This document shows, in pieces, positions 4,925 to 51,216 of a stretch of DNA of 64,000 bases; position 1 is the stretch's first letter, and each line of letters begins with the position of its first letter. A model generated the notes under the pieces. That model worked only from the letters and a program-made list of their open reading frames with translations, searched no databases and was not told the origin of the DNA. Source of the DNA: an uncultured Acidimicrobiia bacterium (lineage in GTDB: Bacteria > Actinomycetota > Acidimicrobiia > Spongiisociales > UBA5794); the NCBI GenBank assembly GCA_963812375.1, contig CAWEUW010000007.1, forward strand, positions 225,856 through 289,855, written 5' to 3'. A program made the position numbers and the translations under genes.

Positions 4925-6430
4925 GTGACGTCACCGGAGAGCTCGCCCGGGCCGGTGTTGCGGATCGAGGGGCGTCTCCAAGCGCTTCGACGCCACCCAG
5001 GCGCTCGACGACGTGTCACTCGACCTCTACCCCGGCGAGGTCCACGGCATCGCCGGCGAGAACGGGGCCGGCAAGTCGACGCTGATCAAGATCATGACCG
5101 GCATCCATCCGGCCGACACCGGATCGATGACCATGGCCGGTGAGCCGTACGCCCCGCACAGCTCCGCCGAGGCTCAGCGCCACGGGGTGGCGGCCATCTA
5201 CCAGGAGCCGTCGATCTTCCCCGACCTCAGCGTCGCCGAGAACATCTTCATCGGGCACGAGGACCAGGGCTGGCTGGTCGACTTCGGCACGATGTACGCC
5301 GAGGCGGAGCGCCTCCTCACCGACCTCGACATCACCGTCAACCCCCGGCTGCCGGCGTCGGGCCTCACCGTCGGCGGGCAGCAGGCGGTGGAGATCGCCA
5401 AGGCGATCTCGCTCGACGTGCGGGTGCTGATCATGGACGAGCCGACCGCCTCGCTCTCCGCCCACGAGGTGGAGCGGCTGTTCCGCCAGGTCCGCCGGCT
5501 GCGCCAGTCCGGGGTGGCCGTGGTCTTCATCACCCACCGGCTCGAGGAGCTGTTCGTCATCGCCGACCGCATCTCGGTCTTCCGCGACGGGCGACGCATC
5601 TCGACCCGGTCGACCTCGGAGGTCACCGAGGAGTCGCTGGTCAGGGAGATGGTGGGCCGCGACCCCAGCGACTTCTTCTCCCGGGTCCACCAAGACCCTG
5701 GCGAGGTGCGACTGGAGGTGGACTCGCTGGGACGGGACGGCGTGTTCTCCGACGTCTCCTTCGACCTACGCGGCGGCGAGGTGCTCGGCTTCGCCGGCCT
5801 GGTGGGATCGGGTCGCACCGACATAGGTCTGGCCTTGTTCGGGGTGGCGCCGGCCAGCGAGGGGTCGGTCCGGCTCGACGGCAAGCCGGTGACCATCAAG
5901 TCGCCCCGCCAGGCGCTGGAGTTGGGGATCGCCTACCTCTCCGAGGACCGGCGCAAGCTCGGCCTGTCGATGTCGCAACCGGTCGCCGCCAACATCACCC
6001 TGGCAACCCTCGACCGGTACACCAACGGTCTGGGCCTGCTCGAGCGGGCCAAGGAGCGCGCCGACGCCGACGCCATGGGCAAGCGGCTGGACATCCGGAC
6101 GCCGAGCATGGCGACCCCGGTCGGCCTGCTCTCGGGCGGCAATCAGCAGAAGACGATGCTCGCCAAGTGGCTGAACGCCTCCCCCGGGGTGCTGATCCTC
6201 GACGAGCCCACCCGCGGGATCGACGTCGGCGCCAAGGCGGACGTGCATCGCTTCATCGACGAGCTCGCTCGCTCGGGGATCGCCATCATCCTCATCTCGT
6301 CCGACCTCCCCGAGGTCCTGGCGATGAGCGATCGAGTGGCGGTGCTGCGCGAGGGCCGGCTGCGGGCGATCTTCGACCGGACCGAAGCCACCGAGGAGAC
6401 GGGTCATGACCACCGCGGTGGGGGCCGCAT
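4925..6430 (+). CDS. rhaT: sugar (rhamnose-type) ABC transporter ATP-binding protein with duplicated ATPase domains; two 1-bp frameshifts (~4968, ~6410)
   Basis: Walker [10 protein letters not shown], signature LSGGNQQK and a second ATPase half. The N-terminus [16 protein letters not shown]|[23 protein letters not shown] needs removal of one G in a GGGG run. The C-terminus ...[12 protein letters not shown] is restored by removing one G in acgggtc. The stop overlaps the next ATG (ATGA). Confidence 0.75.
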
Positions 6431-26245: not shown

Positions 26246-27232
26246 ATGCGTTACAGGACCATCGAGCGAGCCGGCCTCACCGTGTCGACGGTCGGGTTCG
26301 GCGCCTGGGCCATCGGCGGGAGCTGGGGCACGGTCAGCGACGACGAGTCGATGGCGGCGCTGCACGCCGCCGTCGATACCGGGGTGACCTTCATCGACAC
26401 CGCCGACGTGTATGGCGATGGTCGCAGCGAACGGCTGGTCGCCCGGCTCCGTGGCGAGCGACCGGATGCCGACCTGGTGGTCGCCACCAAGGCGGGACGA
26501 CGGCTCGACCCTCACGTCGCCGGCGGCTACACCGCCGGCAACCTGACGGCCTTCGTCGATCGCAGCCTGGCCAACCTCGCCACCGAGCGCATCGACCTCC
26601 TCCAGCTGCACGGGCCGCCTACCGACGTGTACTACCGGCCCGAGGTGTTCGCCGCCCTCGACGACCTGGTGGCGGCAGGAAAGCTCAGGTCGTACGGGGT
26701 GAGCGTCGAACGGGTCGAGGAGGCCGAGAAGGCGATCCTGTATCCGGGTGTGGCCAGCGTCCAGATCATCTTCAACATCTTCCGCACCCGACCCGCCGAC
26801 CGGTTCCTCGCCGACGCCGCCGCCAAGGGAGTCGGGGTGATCGCCAGGGTGCCGCTCGCCAGCGGGCTGCTCAGCGGCCGGATGACCGCCGCCACCACCT
26901 TCGAAGCCGACGATCACCGGTCGTTCAACCGGCACGGGGAGTCGTTCGACATCGGGGAGACCTTCTCAGGCGTGCCCTACGAGGACGGGCTCGCCGCGGT
27001 CGATGAGATCCGCCCGCTGGTCCCCGAGGGCTGGACCATGGCACAGCTGGCGCTGCGCTGGATCCTGATGCACGAAGGCGTCTCGACGGTGATCCCGGGG
27101 GCCAAGACCCCCGAGCAGGCGATCGCCAACGCCGCCGCCGCCGATCTCGACCCGATCCCGGAGGCGACCATGGCGGCCCTGGCCGATCTATACGCCGCCC
27201 GAATCGCCCCCCACGTCCACCAACGGTGGTGA
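26246..27232 (+). CDS. aldo/keto reductase
   Basis: gaggag SD + ATG. MRYRTIERAGLTVSTVGFGAWAIGGSWG...FIDTADVYGDGRSERLV...IPGAKTPEQAIANAAAADL... intact. Its upstream part in the six-frame track (25100..26245) is antisense to the cyclase. Confidence 0.85.
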   Translation: MRYRTIERAGLTVSTVGFGAWAIGGSWGTVSDDESMAALHAAVDTGVTFIDTADVYGDGRSERLVARLRGERPDADLVVATKAGRRLDPHVAGGYTAGNLTAFVDRSLANLATERIDLLQLHGPPTDVYYRPEVFAALDDLVAAGKLRSYGVSVERVEEAEKAILYPGVASVQIIFNIFRTRPADRFLADAAAKGVGVIARVPLASGLLSGRMTAATTFEADDHRSFNRHGESFDIGETFSGVPYEDGLAAVDEIRPLVPEGWTMAQLALRWILMHEGVSTVIPGAKTPEQAIANAAAADLDPIPEATMAALADLYAARIAPHVHQRW

Positions 27233-46741: not shown

Positions 46742-47130
46742 ATGAGCGAGACCTACGAAGTGCGGCCGGTCGGCTACGTGCGCTCGGCGCTGACCGACCC
46801 GACGGACGCCCCGATGCAGGGAGCAGAGGGGCGCCCCCGACGCCTGGCTCGAGTTCGACCCTCCCGTAGGTGAGGCGGTGAGCGACCTGGCGGTCGGCTC
46901 CGAGGTGATCGTGATCACCTGGCTCCACCTGGCCAGCCGCGACGTCCTCCGGGTCCATCCCCGGGACGACGAGAGCAGGCCGATGGAGGGCGTCTTCAGC
47001 ACTCGGTCCCAGGACCGTCCCAATCCCATCGGCCTCCACCCGGTAACGGTCCTCGAGATCGACGGGTTGCGGGTCAAGGTGAACAACCTCGAGGCCGTCG
47101 ACGGCACACCGATCCTCGACATCAAGCCTG
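46742..47130 (+). CDS. TsaA/TrmO-like (YaeB family) tRNA methyltransferase; frameshift ~46840
   Basis: MSETYEVRPVGYVRSALTDPTDAPMQGAEG then (shift) ...SDLAVGSEVIVITWLHLASRDVLRVHPRDDESRPMEGVFSTRSQDRPNPIGLHPVTVLEIDGLRVKVNNLEAVDGTPILDIKPVLRD. Confidence 0.6.
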
Positions 47131-49491
47131 TCCTCCGTGACCGACTTCCCCTTGGGGTGACGCCGGCGCCTCTCTGCAGTTCCCGATGACTTGGCCCGGA
47201 CACACGCCGAGGGGACTCCACAGGGGAGTCCCCTCTGACGGCAGGCCTGGCGTCAGCCGACCGGGACCAGCTCCCGCTCTTGCTCGACCTGCTCGGGGGC
47301 CGGCGACGGGTGACACCGCGCCTTCGATGTGGACTTCGGGGAGCCACTCGAGCCACGACGGCAGGTACCAGTTGCGGTCGCCGAGCAGCTTCATGGTGGC
47401 GGGGACCAGGATCGAGCGGACGATGGTGGCGTCGAGCGCCACGGCCACCGCCAACCCGAACCCCATCTGCTGCAGCGCCACCAGGGACCCGGCGGCGAAC
47501 CCGGCGAACACGGCGACCATGATCGCCGCCGCCCCGGTGATCAGCGCGCCGGTGGTGCGCAGCCCGTAGGCGACCGACTCGGTGTTGTCCCCGGTCTGGT
47601 CGAACCGTTCCCGGATCCGGCTCAACAGGAACACGTGGTAGTCCATCGACAGCCCGAACAGGATGGCGAACAGGAACAGCGGCATCCCGGCCTCGATGGC
47701 CTCGACCTGGCCGAAGCCGAGCCAGCCGGCGATGTCCTTGAACACCTCGGGCCCGACACCCTCCTGGAAGAAGAGGACCACCAGCCCGAACGCCGCCGCC
47801 ACCGAGAGCAGGTTCATCACGATCGCCTTCGCCGGGATGACCAGCGACCGGAAGGCGACGGTGAGCAGCACGAATGACAGCCCGAGCACGAACAGGATGA
47901 CGATCGGGGTGTAGAGGCTGGTCTGCGCCAGGTAGTCGACGTTGTAGGCGGTGTCGCCACCGACGAGGACCTCTACGGGCAGATCACCGAAGGTGCCCGG
48001 CACGACCTCGGTACGCAGCTCCCGGACCGTGTCCATAGCCGCCTCGGCGGCGACGTCCCCGGTCAGCGGGGCGCTCACCAGCGCCACATCCCCGCCCTCC
48101 CCCAGTTCGACCTGGACCGGGCCGAACGACGGGTCGGCGTCGAGCGTCGCCTGCAGGTCGGCGATGGCGGACGTCACCGGCGGGGTGAGCTCTCCGTCGA
48201 CCACGATCTCCACCGGCGACCCGAGCCCACCGGAGAACTCGCTCTCCAAGACGAGAAACGCCTGCTTGGACTCGACCTCGTCGGGCAGGGTGCTAACGCC
48301 CGAGAACCCTTCCGACATGCTGAGGAAGGGCAGGGCCGCCAGCAGCAGTACCCCGGCGGCGAGCACCAGGCTGACGACCGGCCGACCCATGACGGTGCGG
48401 GCAATCCGGTCCCAGAACCGGCCCTGTCGCTCGGGGTGTCGCCGGCCTCGGATACGAAGCCACTCGACCCGGTCGCCGAGCAGCGCCAGCACGGCGGGCA
48501 GCAGGGTCAGCGAGGCGATGACAGCCACCACCACGACCAGGATCGCCCCCAGCCCGATGCTCCGGTAGATGGTGTTGGGTAGCAGCAGCATGCCGGCCAG
48601 GGCGACCACCACGGTGAGGCCGGAGAACAGCACCGCCCGGCTCGCCGTTGCTCCTGCCCGGGTGATCGCCTGGAGCACGTCGTCGCCGGCGGCGCGCTCC
48701 TCCCGGTAGCGGGACACGATGAACAGCGAGTAGTCGATGCCCACCGCCAGGCCGAGCATCGTGATGATGTTGGCGATGAAGAACGGCAGGTCGAAAGCGA
48801 AGCCGAACAGGGCGGCGGCGCCGAGGGCGATGGCGATCGCCGTCACCGCCAGCATTATCGGGATCAACCCGGCGACCACGCCACCGAACACGAACACCAA
48901 CACGACCAGTGCCACCGCCAGGCCGATGCTCTCGCCGCGCTGCAGCCCCTCCTCCGCCAACCGGATGAAGTCGTTCTCCAGCGTGGCCGGCCCGGCGACG
49001 TGCGCCTCGAAGCCATCAGGGGCGTCGACGCCGGCGACCGCCTCCACCACCAGCTCGGCGTTCTCGCCGACGGCGGTGTGGTCTTCACCGGCCACGGCCA
49101 CCGGCAGAAGGGTCGACCGCCCGTTCTCCGAGACCGGTCCCTCCTCGGTCAGGTAGCTGCCCACGTCACGGACGACGTCGACGCCGAGGGCGGCGATCGC
49201 GGTGTGCAGCCCGTCTACGTACGCCTGGTATCCCGGGTCGGTGACGGGCACCTCGCCGGTGACCACCACGAACTCCGTGGCGTCATCGGCAGAGCCGAGC
49301 CGGTCCGCCACCAGGGCTGCCGCCCGCTTGGACTCCGGTTCGTTCGTGAAGTCGGTGTCGGTGGTGAGGGCATCGCCCAGGAACAGCGAGGACACCACGC
49401 CGGCGGTGACGAGGGCGACCACCCACGTCGCCAGGGTTCTCCATGGACGGCGTGCCGCCGATCGAGCCAGTGATTCGGTGGACGGTCTCAC
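47122..49491 (-). CDS. mmpL: MMPL-family RND-type membrane transporter
   Basis: ~790-aa intact ORF with 12 predicted TM segments and two large loops. Likely GTG 49491 (GGGAGAGG SD). VRPSTESLARSAARRPWRTLATWVVALVTAGVVSSLFLGDALTTDTDFTNEPESKRAAALVADRLG... Confidence 0.85.
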   Translation of the reverse strand: MRPSTESLARSAARRPWRTLATWVVALVTAGVVSSLFLGDALTTDTDFTNEPESKRAAALVADRLGSADDATEFVVVTGEVPVTDPGYQAYVDGLHTAIAALGVDVVRDVGSYLTEEGPVSENGRSTLLPVAVAGEDHTAVGENAELVVEAVAGVDAPDGFEAHVAGPATLENDFIRLAEEGLQRGESIGLAVALVVLVFVFGGVVAGLIPIMLAVTAIAIALGAAALFGFAFDLPFFIANIITMLGLAVGIDYSLFIVSRYREERAAGDDVLQAITRAGATASRAVLFSGLTVVVALAGMLLLPNTIYRSIGLGAILVVVVAVIASLTLLPAVLALLGDRVEWLRIRGRRHPERQGRFWDRIARTVMGRPVVSLVLAAGVLLLAALPFLSMSEGFSGVSTLPDEVESKQAFLVLESEFSGGLGSPVEIVVDGELTPPVTSAIADLQATLDADPSFGPVQVELGEGGDVALVSAPLTGDVAAEAAMDTVRELRTEVVPGTFGDLPVEVLVGGDTAYNVDYLAQTSLYTPIVILFVLGLSFVLLTVAFRSLVIPAKAIVMNLLSVAAAFGLVVLFFQEGVGPEVFKDIAGWLGFGQVEAIEAGMPLFLFAILFGLSMDYHVFLLSRIRERFDQTGDNTESVAYGLRTTGALITGAAAIMVAVFAGFAAGSLVALQQMGFGLAVAVALDATIVRSILVPATMKLLGDRNWYLPSWLEWLPEVHIEGAVSPVAGPRAGRARAGAGPGRLTPGLPSEGTPLWSPLGVCPGQVIGNCREAPASPQGEVGHGGQA

Positions 49492-49524
49492 GATGCCTCT
49501 CCCTTGCCTGGAACCCCACACTCT

Positions 49525-49578
49525 TCGTACGTCGTAAGGTTGTCGTACGGCGTAAGTTAACCGTACAGCGTAAGGACG
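49525..49578. promoter_or_regulatory. three tandem 18-bp repeats each containing near-palindrome CGTAC(G/A)NCGTAAG: candidate TetR operator array between tetR stop and mmpL start
   Basis: tcgtacgtcgtaaggttg / tcgtacggcgtaagttaa / ccgtacagcgtaaggacg at exact 18-bp phasing (49525, 49543, 49561). A fourth copy is at 50358. Confidence 0.55.
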
Positions 49579-49632
49579 TCAAGACGCGACATCGGTTGAG
49601 ATGTGCGGGGTGTCCCGGAGGCGGGCTCGGGT

Positions 49633-50331
49633 CAGGCGGTTCGGAGCCGGGCGAGGCCGTCGAGGATGAGATCGAGCCCGAACTCGAACTCGGTCTGGTC
49701 GTCACACCAGCCCAGCGTCGAGTCGGGGTCGTCGTGACTGACCGTCATCGTCATCTCTACGAGGTGAGGGATCTGGGGCGCCATCTCCTCGAACAGCGGC
49801 CGTGTTCTCCTCCTCGGCGCCGGGCTCGTCGGGCTCGAACAGCTCCTGGGAGAAGCCGATGGCCCGGCTCCCCAAGGCGTGCAGGGCGTGGTGGGTCAGG
49901 TCGTAGGAGAAGCCCCCCTCACGGAAGAGACCGACCAGCGAGTCGAAGTAGCGCAGCACGGGCGGGTTCATCGGGGTGTGACGCCCGATGATCCCGGGCA
50001 TCCACTTGTGAAGGAGCAGCACCCGGCGGGCCGCCAGGATCCTGGCTCGCATCGCACCGACCCAGTCCTCGGTCGCCGACGGGCCGTCGACGGCGTCGAC
50101 AGCCTGGTTGATCTCGTCGATCACCATCTCGACGACACCGTCGAGGATGGCGTCCTTGTTGGCGACGTGGTAGTACAGCGACATCGCCTCGACGTCCAGC
50201 GCTTCGGCGAGCCGGCGCATGGTGAGCGCCTCGATGCCGCCTTCGTCGGCAAGGGCGACGGCCGCCGCCAGCACCCGCCGTCTGCTCAGCGGGATCCTGG
50301 GCGCCGCCCGGGGATCGGTCTGCGTGGCCAT
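49633..50331 (-). CDS. TetR/AcrR-family transcriptional regulator (upstream of mmpL); frameshift ~49815 in C-terminal third
   Basis: MATQTDPRAAPRIPLSRRRVLAAAVALADEGGIEALTMRRLAEALDVEAMSLYYHVANKDAILDGVVEMV.... The C-terminus ...LFEEMAPQIPHLVEMTMTVSHDDPDSTLGWCDDQTEFEFGLDLILDGLARLRTA* is in frame +1. Confidence 0.75.
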
Positions 50332-50357
50332 CGGTCCACCTCTCCGCCGAATCCTAA

Positions 50358-50370
50358 CGTACGCGGTAAG
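50358..50370. promoter_or_regulatory. fourth copy of CGTACGNCGTAAG motif, ~27 bp upstream of tetR start (autoregulation site candidate)
   Basis: cgtacgcggtaag at 50358-50370. Confidence 0.45.
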
Positions 50371-50407
50371 GCTCCACGGGTCTGTTCGTGTCCCGGGCCC
50401 GGCCTTC

Positions 50408-50761
50408 TCAGCTCAGGGCGCGGCCGGCTTCGCTACGCAGGCGGTCGATGTCGGTGCCGGTCTCCTCACCGAGGATGCGGCGCACCGCCGGGGATGCATG
50501 CTCGAGCACGTCCGCCATCTCCCCGAGGACGGCCCGCTGCGCCTTGGTGCGGGCCGCCTCATCCGGCGGGGTCACCAGGTCGTCGACGATCGAGTCCTCG
50601 GCGCGGGATGCCACCAAGGGGTCGGGCAACCCCCGCATCCACACCAGGGTGCGCCGTCCGGGACCCCGGCCCTCGAGGATGGGCTCGACGGCGACGACAT
50701 CGTCCGACCGGACGTACTTCCCGTATCCGAGCGCCACGAGCTGTCCCGACTGGATCCGCAT
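50408..50761 (-). CDS. small conserved hypothetical protein, possibly DUF370/RemA-like
   Basis: MRIQSGQLVALGYGKYVRSDDVVAVEPILEGRGPGRRTLVWMRGLPDPLVASRAEDSIVDDLV.... The N-terminal 30 aa loosely resemble the RemA/DUF370 core (INIGFGN.V.A.R...IV.P). Weak call. Confidence 0.3.
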   Translation of the reverse strand: MRIQSGQLVALGYGKYVRSDDVVAVEPILEGRGPGRRTLVWMRGLPDPLVASRAEDSIVDDLVTPPDEAARTKAQRAVLGEMADVLEHASPAVRRILGEETGTDIDRLRSEAGRALS

Positions 50762-50838
50762 CCACCTGCCTCCGGAGCGGTGTCGGCCTGACGCTACCCG
50801 GGTCGTGGAAGCGTGGCCACAGCTGGCACACTGGCCGG

Positions 50839-51216
50839 GTGCCCCTACCCCGACGCCTGGCGGAACTCAACCGGACCGTCACCAACCGGATCCTCGGGCC
50901 GATGGCGGAGTACCTCCCGTGGTTCGGGTTGGTCCACCATCGCGGCCGCCGCAGCGGGACCGCCTACACCACGCCGGTGAACGTGTTCGTCGAAGGCGAC
51001 CGGTTCGTCATCGCCCTCACCTACGGCGCCGACACCGACTGGTTGCGCAACATCACCGCCGCCGGCGGCTGCTGGCTGGGCCATCGCGGTCGCCTGGTCC
51101 GCCTCACCGACCCGCAGCGGATGGCCACCGACGCCGGGATGGCGGCGATGCCGGCACCGGTCCGGGTCATCCTCCAAGCCCTCGGGGTGACCGAGTTCGT
51201 CGAGCTCCGGCGCTGA
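50839..51216 (+). CDS. deazaflavin (F420H2)-dependent nitroreductase family protein (DUF385/PNPOx-like)
   Basis: GTG start. VPLPRRLAELNRTVTNRILGPMAEYLPWFGLVHHRGRRSGTAYTTPVNVFVEGDRFVIALTYGADTDWLRNITAAGGCWLGHRGR... intact 125 aa. Confidence 0.7.
   Translation: MPLPRRLAELNRTVTNRILGPMAEYLPWFGLVHHRGRRSGTAYTTPVNVFVEGDRFVIALTYGADTDWLRNITAAGGCWLGHRGRLVRLTDPQRMATDAGMAAMPAPVRVILQALGVTEFVELRR

Follow-up and report, generated by a model that had tools for sequence, protein, structure and literature searches.

The 64-kb stretch of DNA analyzed here (the window), from an uncultured Acidimicrobiia bacterium, carries a gene for a TetR-family regulator (tetR) and a gene for an MMPL-family transporter (mmpL), both on the minus strand. 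Copies of a short near-palindrome accompany them in the order operator, tetR, three operators, mmpL (Table 1). The pattern CGTACRNSGTAAG had four exact matches in the whole window, and a relaxed family consensus, CTTACNNNGTAMG, found the same four sites at zero mismatches. When one mismatch was allowed, CGTACRNSGTAAG gained one extra match at 26691 (0.26 expected by chance). This lone match in a coding region was the only other candidate regulon site in the window. In a shuffle control, five matches were reached in 0 of 100 shuffles. Tandem Repeats Finder reported a period of 18 with 2.8 copies at 49526-49575, while a repeat search returned four copies with spacings of 18, 18, and 796. Exact matches, Tandem Repeats Finder, and shuffles agree that the tandem 18-bp repeats noted in a preliminary description of this DNA are real; the unit starts given there (49525, 49543, and 49561) were one base early, the actual ones being 49526, 49544, and 49562.

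Read on the minus strand, the sites are CTTAC-N3-GTACG, a 13-bp near-palindrome. Their layout is 6-1-6, CTTACG-N-CGTA(C/A)G, with the dyad at the central base, and the array units read CTTACG-N-CGTACG on the sense strand. The self-complementary CGTACG half-site that had been pointed out is incidental, since the true dyad is the central N of CTTACG-N-CGTA(A/C)G. On the plus strand, O3 plus its flanks (49524-49540) is TTCGTACGTCGTAAGGT, and O2 is CGTACGGCGTAAG. The fourth copy is present, and its edge lies at the previously described distance from the tetR ATG. However, its sequence is CGTACGCGGTAAG, i.e., CTTAC-CGC-GTACG, which departs in the central triplet from the CGTACGNCGTAAG first proposed and from the array units. 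The triple array spans 49 bp of the 140-bp gap between the tetR stop and the mmpL GTG at 49491 (110 bp if the longest open reading frame [ORF], from GTG 49521, is taken), rather than filling a whole 104-bp gap as had been suggested.

Table 1. Genes, predicted promoter elements, and candidate operators at the tetR-mmpL locus (window coordinates)
Feature	Position	Strand	Basis
mmpL, MMPL-family RND-type transporter	47122..49491	-	GTG 49491; ribosome-binding site GGGAGAGG 6 nt upstream; Pfam MMPL E = 4e-85
Candidate operator O3, CTTACGACGTACG	49526..49538	-	Exact motif match; in the predicted mmpL 5' untranslated region (UTR)
Candidate operator O2, CTTACGCCGTACG	49544..49556	-	Exact motif match; overlaps the -10 by its first 3 nt and spans the predicted transcription start
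Predicted mmpL -10, TAACTT	49554..49559	-	TANNNT type usual in actinobacteria; TACCTT, TATCTT, or TAACTT at the same place in relatives
Candidate operator O1, CTTACGCTGTACG	49562..49574	-	Exact motif match; inside the 17-nt -35/-10 spacer of the predicted mmpL promoter
Predicted mmpL -35, TTGACG	49577..49582	-	Relatives keep a CTTGAC 2 nt before site 1
tetR, ~232 residues by homology	49632..50331	-	ATG 50331; stop 49632-49634; Pfam TetR_N and TetR_C_1; homologue alignment
Predicted tetR -10, TAGGAT	50351..50356	-	1 nt downstream of OR; relatives have a TAnnnT box after their auto-site
Candidate autoregulatory operator OR, CTTACCGCGTACG	50358..50370	-	Exact motif match; 27 nt upstream of tetR ATG 50331

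The MMPL domain of the transporter (PF03176) was matched in two stretches, in keeping with the two-repeat, ~750-residue MMPL family. The NCBIfam MmpL3 and actII models scored below their cut-offs (TIGR00833 'actII', E = 2e-64), and the substrate is therefore not assignable from them. The GTG start, the N terminus, and the ribosome-binding site are conserved in five relatives (L001, L053, L019, L201, and L202), whereas the start of the longer ORF from 49521 is not. No mmpS gene was seen beside mmpL. The last ~60 codons (47122-47300, minus strand) look out of frame. L001 covers MmpL residues 1-729 in a single frame but switches frame for residues 750-783, pointing to another indel in one of the two assemblies.

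In the window, tetR is split. DNA alignment to the two closest genomes (L001 and L053, records labelled metagenome-assembled genomes [MAGs] of uncultured Acidimicrobiia) placed a 1-nt insertion near 49797, and the extra base lies within 49790-49800 (minus strand, ...cacggccGctgttc...). The first piece, an ORF of 209 residues at 49702-50331, holds the helix-turn-helix domain and the first part of TetR_C_1. The second, a 50-codon ORF at 49632-49784 in another frame, holds the end of that domain. TetR_N (PF00440) was matched at residues 21-64 (E = 9e-10), and TetR_C_1 (PF02909) was matched on both frame pieces (profile positions 5-80 and 121-144). Intact homologues are 232 to 234 residues long and carry both domains, and two independent contigs (L201 and L202) encode an intact 232-residue TetR. 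The truncated 209-residue protein had no exact match in the sequence collection, a result that is silent on whether the frameshift recurs elsewhere.

The TetR models of NCBIfam gave only sub-threshold matches, and Pfam found TetR_N and TetR_C_1 in the repressor but no MarR family match. Its nearest solved structures are the putative Streptomyces TetR 3bqy, 5ojx, ActR, tetracycline repressors, and SimR, none of them close. The label "MmpR-like" used earlier does not suit such a protein, as MmpR5 (Rv0678) belongs to the MarR family. Judged by its N- and C-terminal domains, the window repressor is a TetR-family protein of the TetR/SimR-like kind.

Linkage of the sites to tetR

We used the frame-repaired TetR as a query and obtained ~6,900 database proteins at E <= 1e-10, from which 80 genome loci were fetched. 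Many homologues are ~65% identical to the query, and they come from Acidimicrobiia, Streptosporangiales, Micromonosporales, Pseudonocardiales, Jiangellales, and Frankia. The consensus CTTACNNNGTAMG, at up to one mismatch, occurred within 350 bp of tetR in all 80 genome loci. Across these loci there were 254 motif hits in the 55 kb near tetR and 10 in the remaining 511 kb, corresponding to densities of 4.6 versus 0.02 per kb, or a ~235-fold enrichment. The distances between neighboring sites were almost exclusively 14 bp (44 times), 18 bp (42 times), and 19 bp (19 times). When arrays were oriented toward the downstream gene, site 1 was followed after 18 or 19 bp by site 2 and after a further 14 (or 18) bp by site 3, with 14 bp being the second step in most relatives. 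Together with the window, these loci make 81 sequences, and in 64 of them a single auto-site precedes the tetR start by 22 to 67 nt, with a TAnnnT box after it. This auto-site is most often CTTACCTTGTACG, so that the departure in its central triplet is conserved as well.

We also searched in the reverse direction, using the triple array as a bare DNA pattern against metagenome contigs. This yielded at least 120 loci; the counts that follow for this set refer to the matches listed. Contigs with at least 900 bp of upstream flank were considered informative (n = 80). A homologue of this TetR was encoded directly upstream of the triple array, in either divergent or co-directional orientation, in 75 of these 80. 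Among the five exceptions, two contigs (L144 and L179) have the array before a DUF4386 gene, suggesting that some regulon members lie away from tetR. The gene for this TetR is the sole constant neighbor of the motif, and the targets vary.

Comparison in both search directions thus strongly supports the four sites as operators of the adjacent TetR. Palindromic operators that overlap the promoter of an adjacent target gene, the arrangement expected of the TetR family, were found here by sequence and comparison. Both the assignment of the array to the adjacent TetR as controller of mmpL and the idea of an autoregulatory copy, each already put forward in the preliminary description, are borne out by these counts. 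The recognition helix EAMSLYYHVA-K is invariant among 14 aligned subfamily members, which fits the invariance of the half-sites, and a basic N-terminal extension before helix 1 is conserved in the same alignment, with P7, R12, and P14 invariant. In the MMPL-linked relatives, the outer five positions of the half-sites are spared, and changes are found in the central triplet and flanking bases instead.

Several arrangements in relatives departed from the common layout. One metagenome contig (L115, Ga0099364_10000407) carries two tandem triple arrays, i.e., six sites, at 2832-2934, and no TetR homologue was found within its 4.8-kb stretch. Six Nonomuraea loci (L024, L029, L040, L048, L056, and L062) have an extra 14-nt site with one additional central base (CTTACGCTCGTACG or CTTACGCACGTACG), ~130 to 140 nt downstream of tetR and within the first codons of the dehydrogenase gene. 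The otherwise actinobacterial TetR cassette was also present at nine loci from MAGs labelled Acidobacteriota (L010, L016, L020, L027, L033, L049, L057, L064, and L068), which could reflect horizontal transfer or mis-binning.

Target genes of the array

An MMPL gene is not what usually follows these arrays. There were 62 genome arrays with at least two sites, of which 52 precede a gene of ~330 codons with ADH_N and ADH_zinc_N_2 domains, a quinone-oxidoreductase-like zinc-binding dehydrogenase of the MDR superfamily. The remaining targets were four DrrA-like ABC ATPases, two DUF4386 proteins, two MMPL proteins, and one Ddn-like protein, with one array lacking an assigned partner. The dehydrogenase also followed 98 of the at least 120 metagenome arrays. 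Across the 80 genome loci, an MMPL gene followed the array in only three (L001, L019, and L053). The array of L019 was split by our site-clustering rule and is therefore outside the 62. Two contigs from JGI (L201 and L202) provided two more arrays followed by an MMPL gene, and none of the metagenome arrays listed was followed by one.

All MMPL-linked sequences are Acidimicrobiia-like and related to the window. The layout of tetR, an array with two 18-bp steps, and mmpL is common to the window, L001, L053, L201, and L202, whereas the steps in L019 are 18 and 14 bp. The earlier proposal that an MmpL exporter is the target therefore holds for the window and five relatives but not for the subfamily, whose usual partner is different. 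From this comparison, MmpL as a target is a lineage-specific rewiring, the usual target being an oxidoreductase of the zinc-dehydrogenase type. Within the window, there was no homologue of the MDR dehydrogenase or of DUF4386, and the only DrrA-type matches, at 4965-6359 (27 to 28% identity), have no operator site.

Promoters, proposed mechanism, and alternatives

Promoter hexamers were read from the sequence by eye and assigned through positions conserved in relatives. By this reading, mmpL has a sigma-70-type promoter with O1 in the 17-nt spacer, O2 on the -10, and O3 in the 5' UTR. CTTGAC stands upstream of site 1 in ~109 of the at least 120 metagenome arrays, and the position of O1 relative to TTGACN is the same in essentially all triple arrays of relatives. 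Site 2 begins with three bases that also belong to TA(C/A)CTT, and within each spacing class both CTTGAC and TA(C/A)CTT are at least 80% conserved. The step from site 1 to site 2 is 18 or 19 bp, matching promoter spacers of 17 or 18 nt, so the 18-bp step is dictated by promoter geometry. The 18-bp phasing had been taken as a sign of cooperative binding. However, because the first step follows the spacer and the second is mostly 14 bp, phasing alone is not evidence for cooperativity, although cooperative binding of dimers is possible.

We propose that TetR dimers on O1 to O3 occlude the mmpL promoter to about +22, that a dimer on OR makes tetR autoregulated, and that a ligand relieves both; we consider this very probable on the sequence and comparative evidence. 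With O1 in the spacer, O2 on the -10 and the transcription start, and O3 at about +10 to +22 (a conserved position), bound repressor would deny RNA polymerase access to the promoter and block early elongation as well. OR abuts the predicted tetR -10, which would give negative autoregulation. In the window, as in most relatives, its central triplet is non-palindromic, a sign that binding may be weaker and may thereby allow a basal supply of repressor. By analogy with the behavior of the family, a small molecule would bind the TetR_C_1 domain, free the repressor from DNA, and induce mmpL. In the lineage of the window, the conserved promoter-operator cassette would thereby drive mmpL in place of the usual oxidoreductase gene. 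The nearest characterized relatives, ActR and SimR, sense aromatic polyketide antibiotics. Given that kinship and the set of target genes, the ligand would most plausibly be a quinone-like or polycyclic aromatic xenobiotic with MmpL as its exporter, and this is the weakest step of the proposal.

Several points weigh against this proposal. A generic sigma-70 scan of 49400-50900 called no promoter; it would have missed the mmpL promoter because the TANNNT-type -10 fits TATAAT at only three of six positions. The operator role of the sites is argued from sequence and comparison with promoters placed by eye, and both the ligand and the substrate of MmpL are guessed from context. SimR contacts 21 bp, more than the 14- to 18-bp spacing of the sites, which puts simultaneous occupancy of all three in doubt. 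Finally, tetR is frameshifted in the window, and if the frameshift is real, a functional repressor is not made here.

This last point bears on the strongest alternative, in which the operators are genuine but the switch is broken: the insertion in tetR would remove the C-terminal ~55 residues and leave mmpL constitutive, much like an efflux mutant that has lost repression. Resistance commonly arises through loss-of-function mutations in efflux repressors. MAB_4384 offers a case of this kind (PMC5895659). Further in its favor, both pieces of the split gene match TetR_C_1, while the homologues are intact. On the other hand, all four operators and both promoters are perfectly preserved. Moreover, the closest genome-derived relative, L053, has three other 1-nt insertions in the same 700-bp gene, and alignment of the window with L001 shows 32 gap positions in 7.8 kb, most of it coding, as is typical of indel errors in long-read assemblies. 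Because the relatives compared are themselves MAGs, the frameshift is possibly an assembly artifact, although it may be a real pseudogene. We consider a broken switch unlikely, and it is in any case compatible with the sites being operators.

Other explanations fared far worse. The repeats could act in RNA, for example, as hairpins in the mmpL 5' UTR that affect translation or stability, given that part of O2 and all of O3 are predicted to be transcribed and that each unit is near-palindromic. However, O1 and OR precede the predicted -10 boxes and would hence fall outside the transcript. The predicted fold of the mmpL 5' UTR is no better than that of shuffled sequence (z = 0.25), and at a permissive threshold Rfam gave two chance-level matches, neither on the repeats. 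Among the relatives, it is the sequence of the half-sites that is conserved, compensatory changes are absent, and the same motif is the crystallographically defined protein-binding site of SimR (PMC3241653). An RNA element is therefore very improbable.

We gave equally little weight to the idea that the motif is read by another regulator or an alternative sigma factor encoded elsewhere, with the adjacent TetR a bystander. The sequence-based nature of the link between protein and site leaves room for it, but tetR alone always accompanies the motif while the targets change, a single conserved site lies on tetR's own promoter, and the layout and sequence of the operators fit the TetR/SimR clade of DNA-binding domains. 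A functionless tandem repeat produced by chance or slippage, for which only the short length of the repeat speaks, is the least credible reading of all: the shuffle control speaks against it, and it is refuted by comparison, the motif being conserved across Acidimicrobiia, Streptosporangiales, Micromonosporales, Pseudonocardiales, and other orders.

As far as sequence can tell, then, the locus is an ordinary TetR repressor-operator switch, and the understanding of TetR regulation is unchanged by it. It does provide a high-confidence operator and promoter model for an uncharacterized TetR subfamily, the ~6,900 proteins noted above, and it links an orphan Acidimicrobiia MMPL protein to a regulon whose other members point to detoxification of quinones and aromatic xenobiotics. 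With about even confidence, we suggest that this subfamily, spread across Actinomycetota, combines a DNA-binding domain like that of SimR and an invariant HDDPDSTLGWCDDQ-EFEFGLDL motif in the C-terminal part with a portable promoter-operator cassette placed before different detoxification genes. The cassette would consist of TTGACN, site 1, TA(C/A)CTT on site 2, and site 3, with steps of 18 or 19 bp and then 14 or 18 bp. If this is true, a conserved response to quinone-like or aromatic xenobiotics would include this orphan MmpL from an uncultured lineage, and three closely packed dimers would form a distinct, conserved repression complex. The three-operator promoter, which is compact and strongly conserved, could serve as a tight inducible switch in actinobacterial genetics once a ligand is found.

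Other features were observed in the vicinity of tetR. An ORF of 117 residues (50408-50761, minus strand) with no match in Pfam or NCBIfam sits immediately upstream of tetR. In L201 and L202 this ORF is called as a gene and shows at least 96% identity, a higher conservation than that of tetR, and its transcription may run on into tetR. A GC-rich direct repeat of 18 nt, GTGTCCCGG..., occurs at 49610-49627 and 50388-50405, immediately 3' of the tetR stop and of the stop of the 117-residue ORF on the minus strand; these repeats may be hairpin terminators that lack a T-tract. At ~50845-51216 on the plus strand there is an F420H2-dependent quinone reductase-like (Ddn-like) gene with a weak PF04075 match and no operator. 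It is 36% identical to the gene that follows the triple array in L050, and in L009 a Ddn-like gene is divergent from tetR.

Comparison with known systems

In the literature searched, strings of the motif appeared only in the SimR paper and in unrelated primers, and searches for TetR together with quinone oxidoreductase or MmpL found no characterized member of this subfamily. We thus found no published description of the subfamily or its motif there. Under a scheme for predicting the targets of TetR regulators, a co-directional gene pair more than 35 bp apart falls in the class without a predicted target (PMC3511530). The tetR-mmpL pair belongs to that class, and here the operators supply the link to a target.

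The mycobacterial MAB_4384-mmpS5/mmpL5 system resembles the window in having a TetR repressor gene next to an MMPL pump gene with a palindromic operator between them (PMC5895659). It differs in its single 27-bp operator (13-1-13), its divergent arrangement, and the accompanying mmpS gene, and MAB_4384 was not among the sequence relatives in our PDB search. We also considered MSMEG_3765/Rv1685c and rejected it as a match, as it is a different system with a 36-bp palindrome and with tetR last in the operon.

Tn10 TetR shares the Pfam domains of the window repressor, and its operators likewise lie across two promoters, that of the target and that of the repressor gene. The recognition helices are similar, SLYYHVANK in the window and TLYWHVKNK in TetR(B). 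In contrast to the window, Tn10 has two operators in a divergent region, a different half-site sequence, and tetracycline-Mg as the ligand. The centers of its operators are 30 bp apart. The kind of operator layout is shared with the window, tetO being a palindrome of ~15 bp that is bound by a dimer (PMC3511530).

Another parallel is ActR-ActA (actII-ORF1/ORF2) of Streptomyces coelicolor, in which a repressor of the TetR_C_1 type controls an exporter. ActR was the third-best PDB match (E = 6e-20), and the window MmpL matches the TIGR00833 'actII' model, at a score below the cut-off. Three protein-DNA complexes arise with ActR on a 110-bp region that holds three palindromes, and SCO7222 likewise forms three complexes on three palindromes (PMC3511530), which gives precedent for triple operators. 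The ActR genes are divergent, its operator repeats contain CCACCGTT, and its identity to the window TetR is low.

The closest resemblance in DNA is to SimR-simX of Streptomyces antibioticus, in which a TetR-family repressor controls the simocyclinone efflux pump (PMC3241653). The target there is the MFS pump SimX and not an MMPL transporter, and SimR uses two well-separated operators in a divergent region, whereas in the window, where the genes are co-directional, three sites 18 bp apart occupy one promoter and tetR has a separate promoter with a fourth. Relatedness of the C-terminal domains is remote (the match to SimR in the PDB profile search covers only residues 11-116), and the ligand therefore probably differs. 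The DNA-binding domains, however, are related, and the ungapped HMMER coordinates pair query 13-73 with SimR 25-85. If these coordinates correspond to native numbering, S51, Y53, and Y54 would stand opposite the DNA-contacting Ser63, Tyr65, and Tyr66 of SimR, with H55 in place of Tyr67, a correspondence we infer from the alignment coordinates. The conserved basic N-terminal extension of the window TetR also resembles the minor-groove "arm" of SimR. The SimR operator OX, TTCGTACGGTGTATGAA, was crystallized in a symmetrized form, TTCGTACGGCGTACGAA, with one dimer per 17-mer and contacts that span 21 bp (PMC3241653). Both are nearly the same sequence as TTCGTACGTCGTAAGGT in the window; relative to the SimR half-site TTCGTACG, the window half-site CGTACGAA is identical, and the other half is 1 nt off. 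In both systems the sites are odd-length palindromes with a central base pair, each of which in SimR takes one dimer, and several operators per regulated region and an autoregulated repressor, as proposed for the window, are likewise features of SimR.

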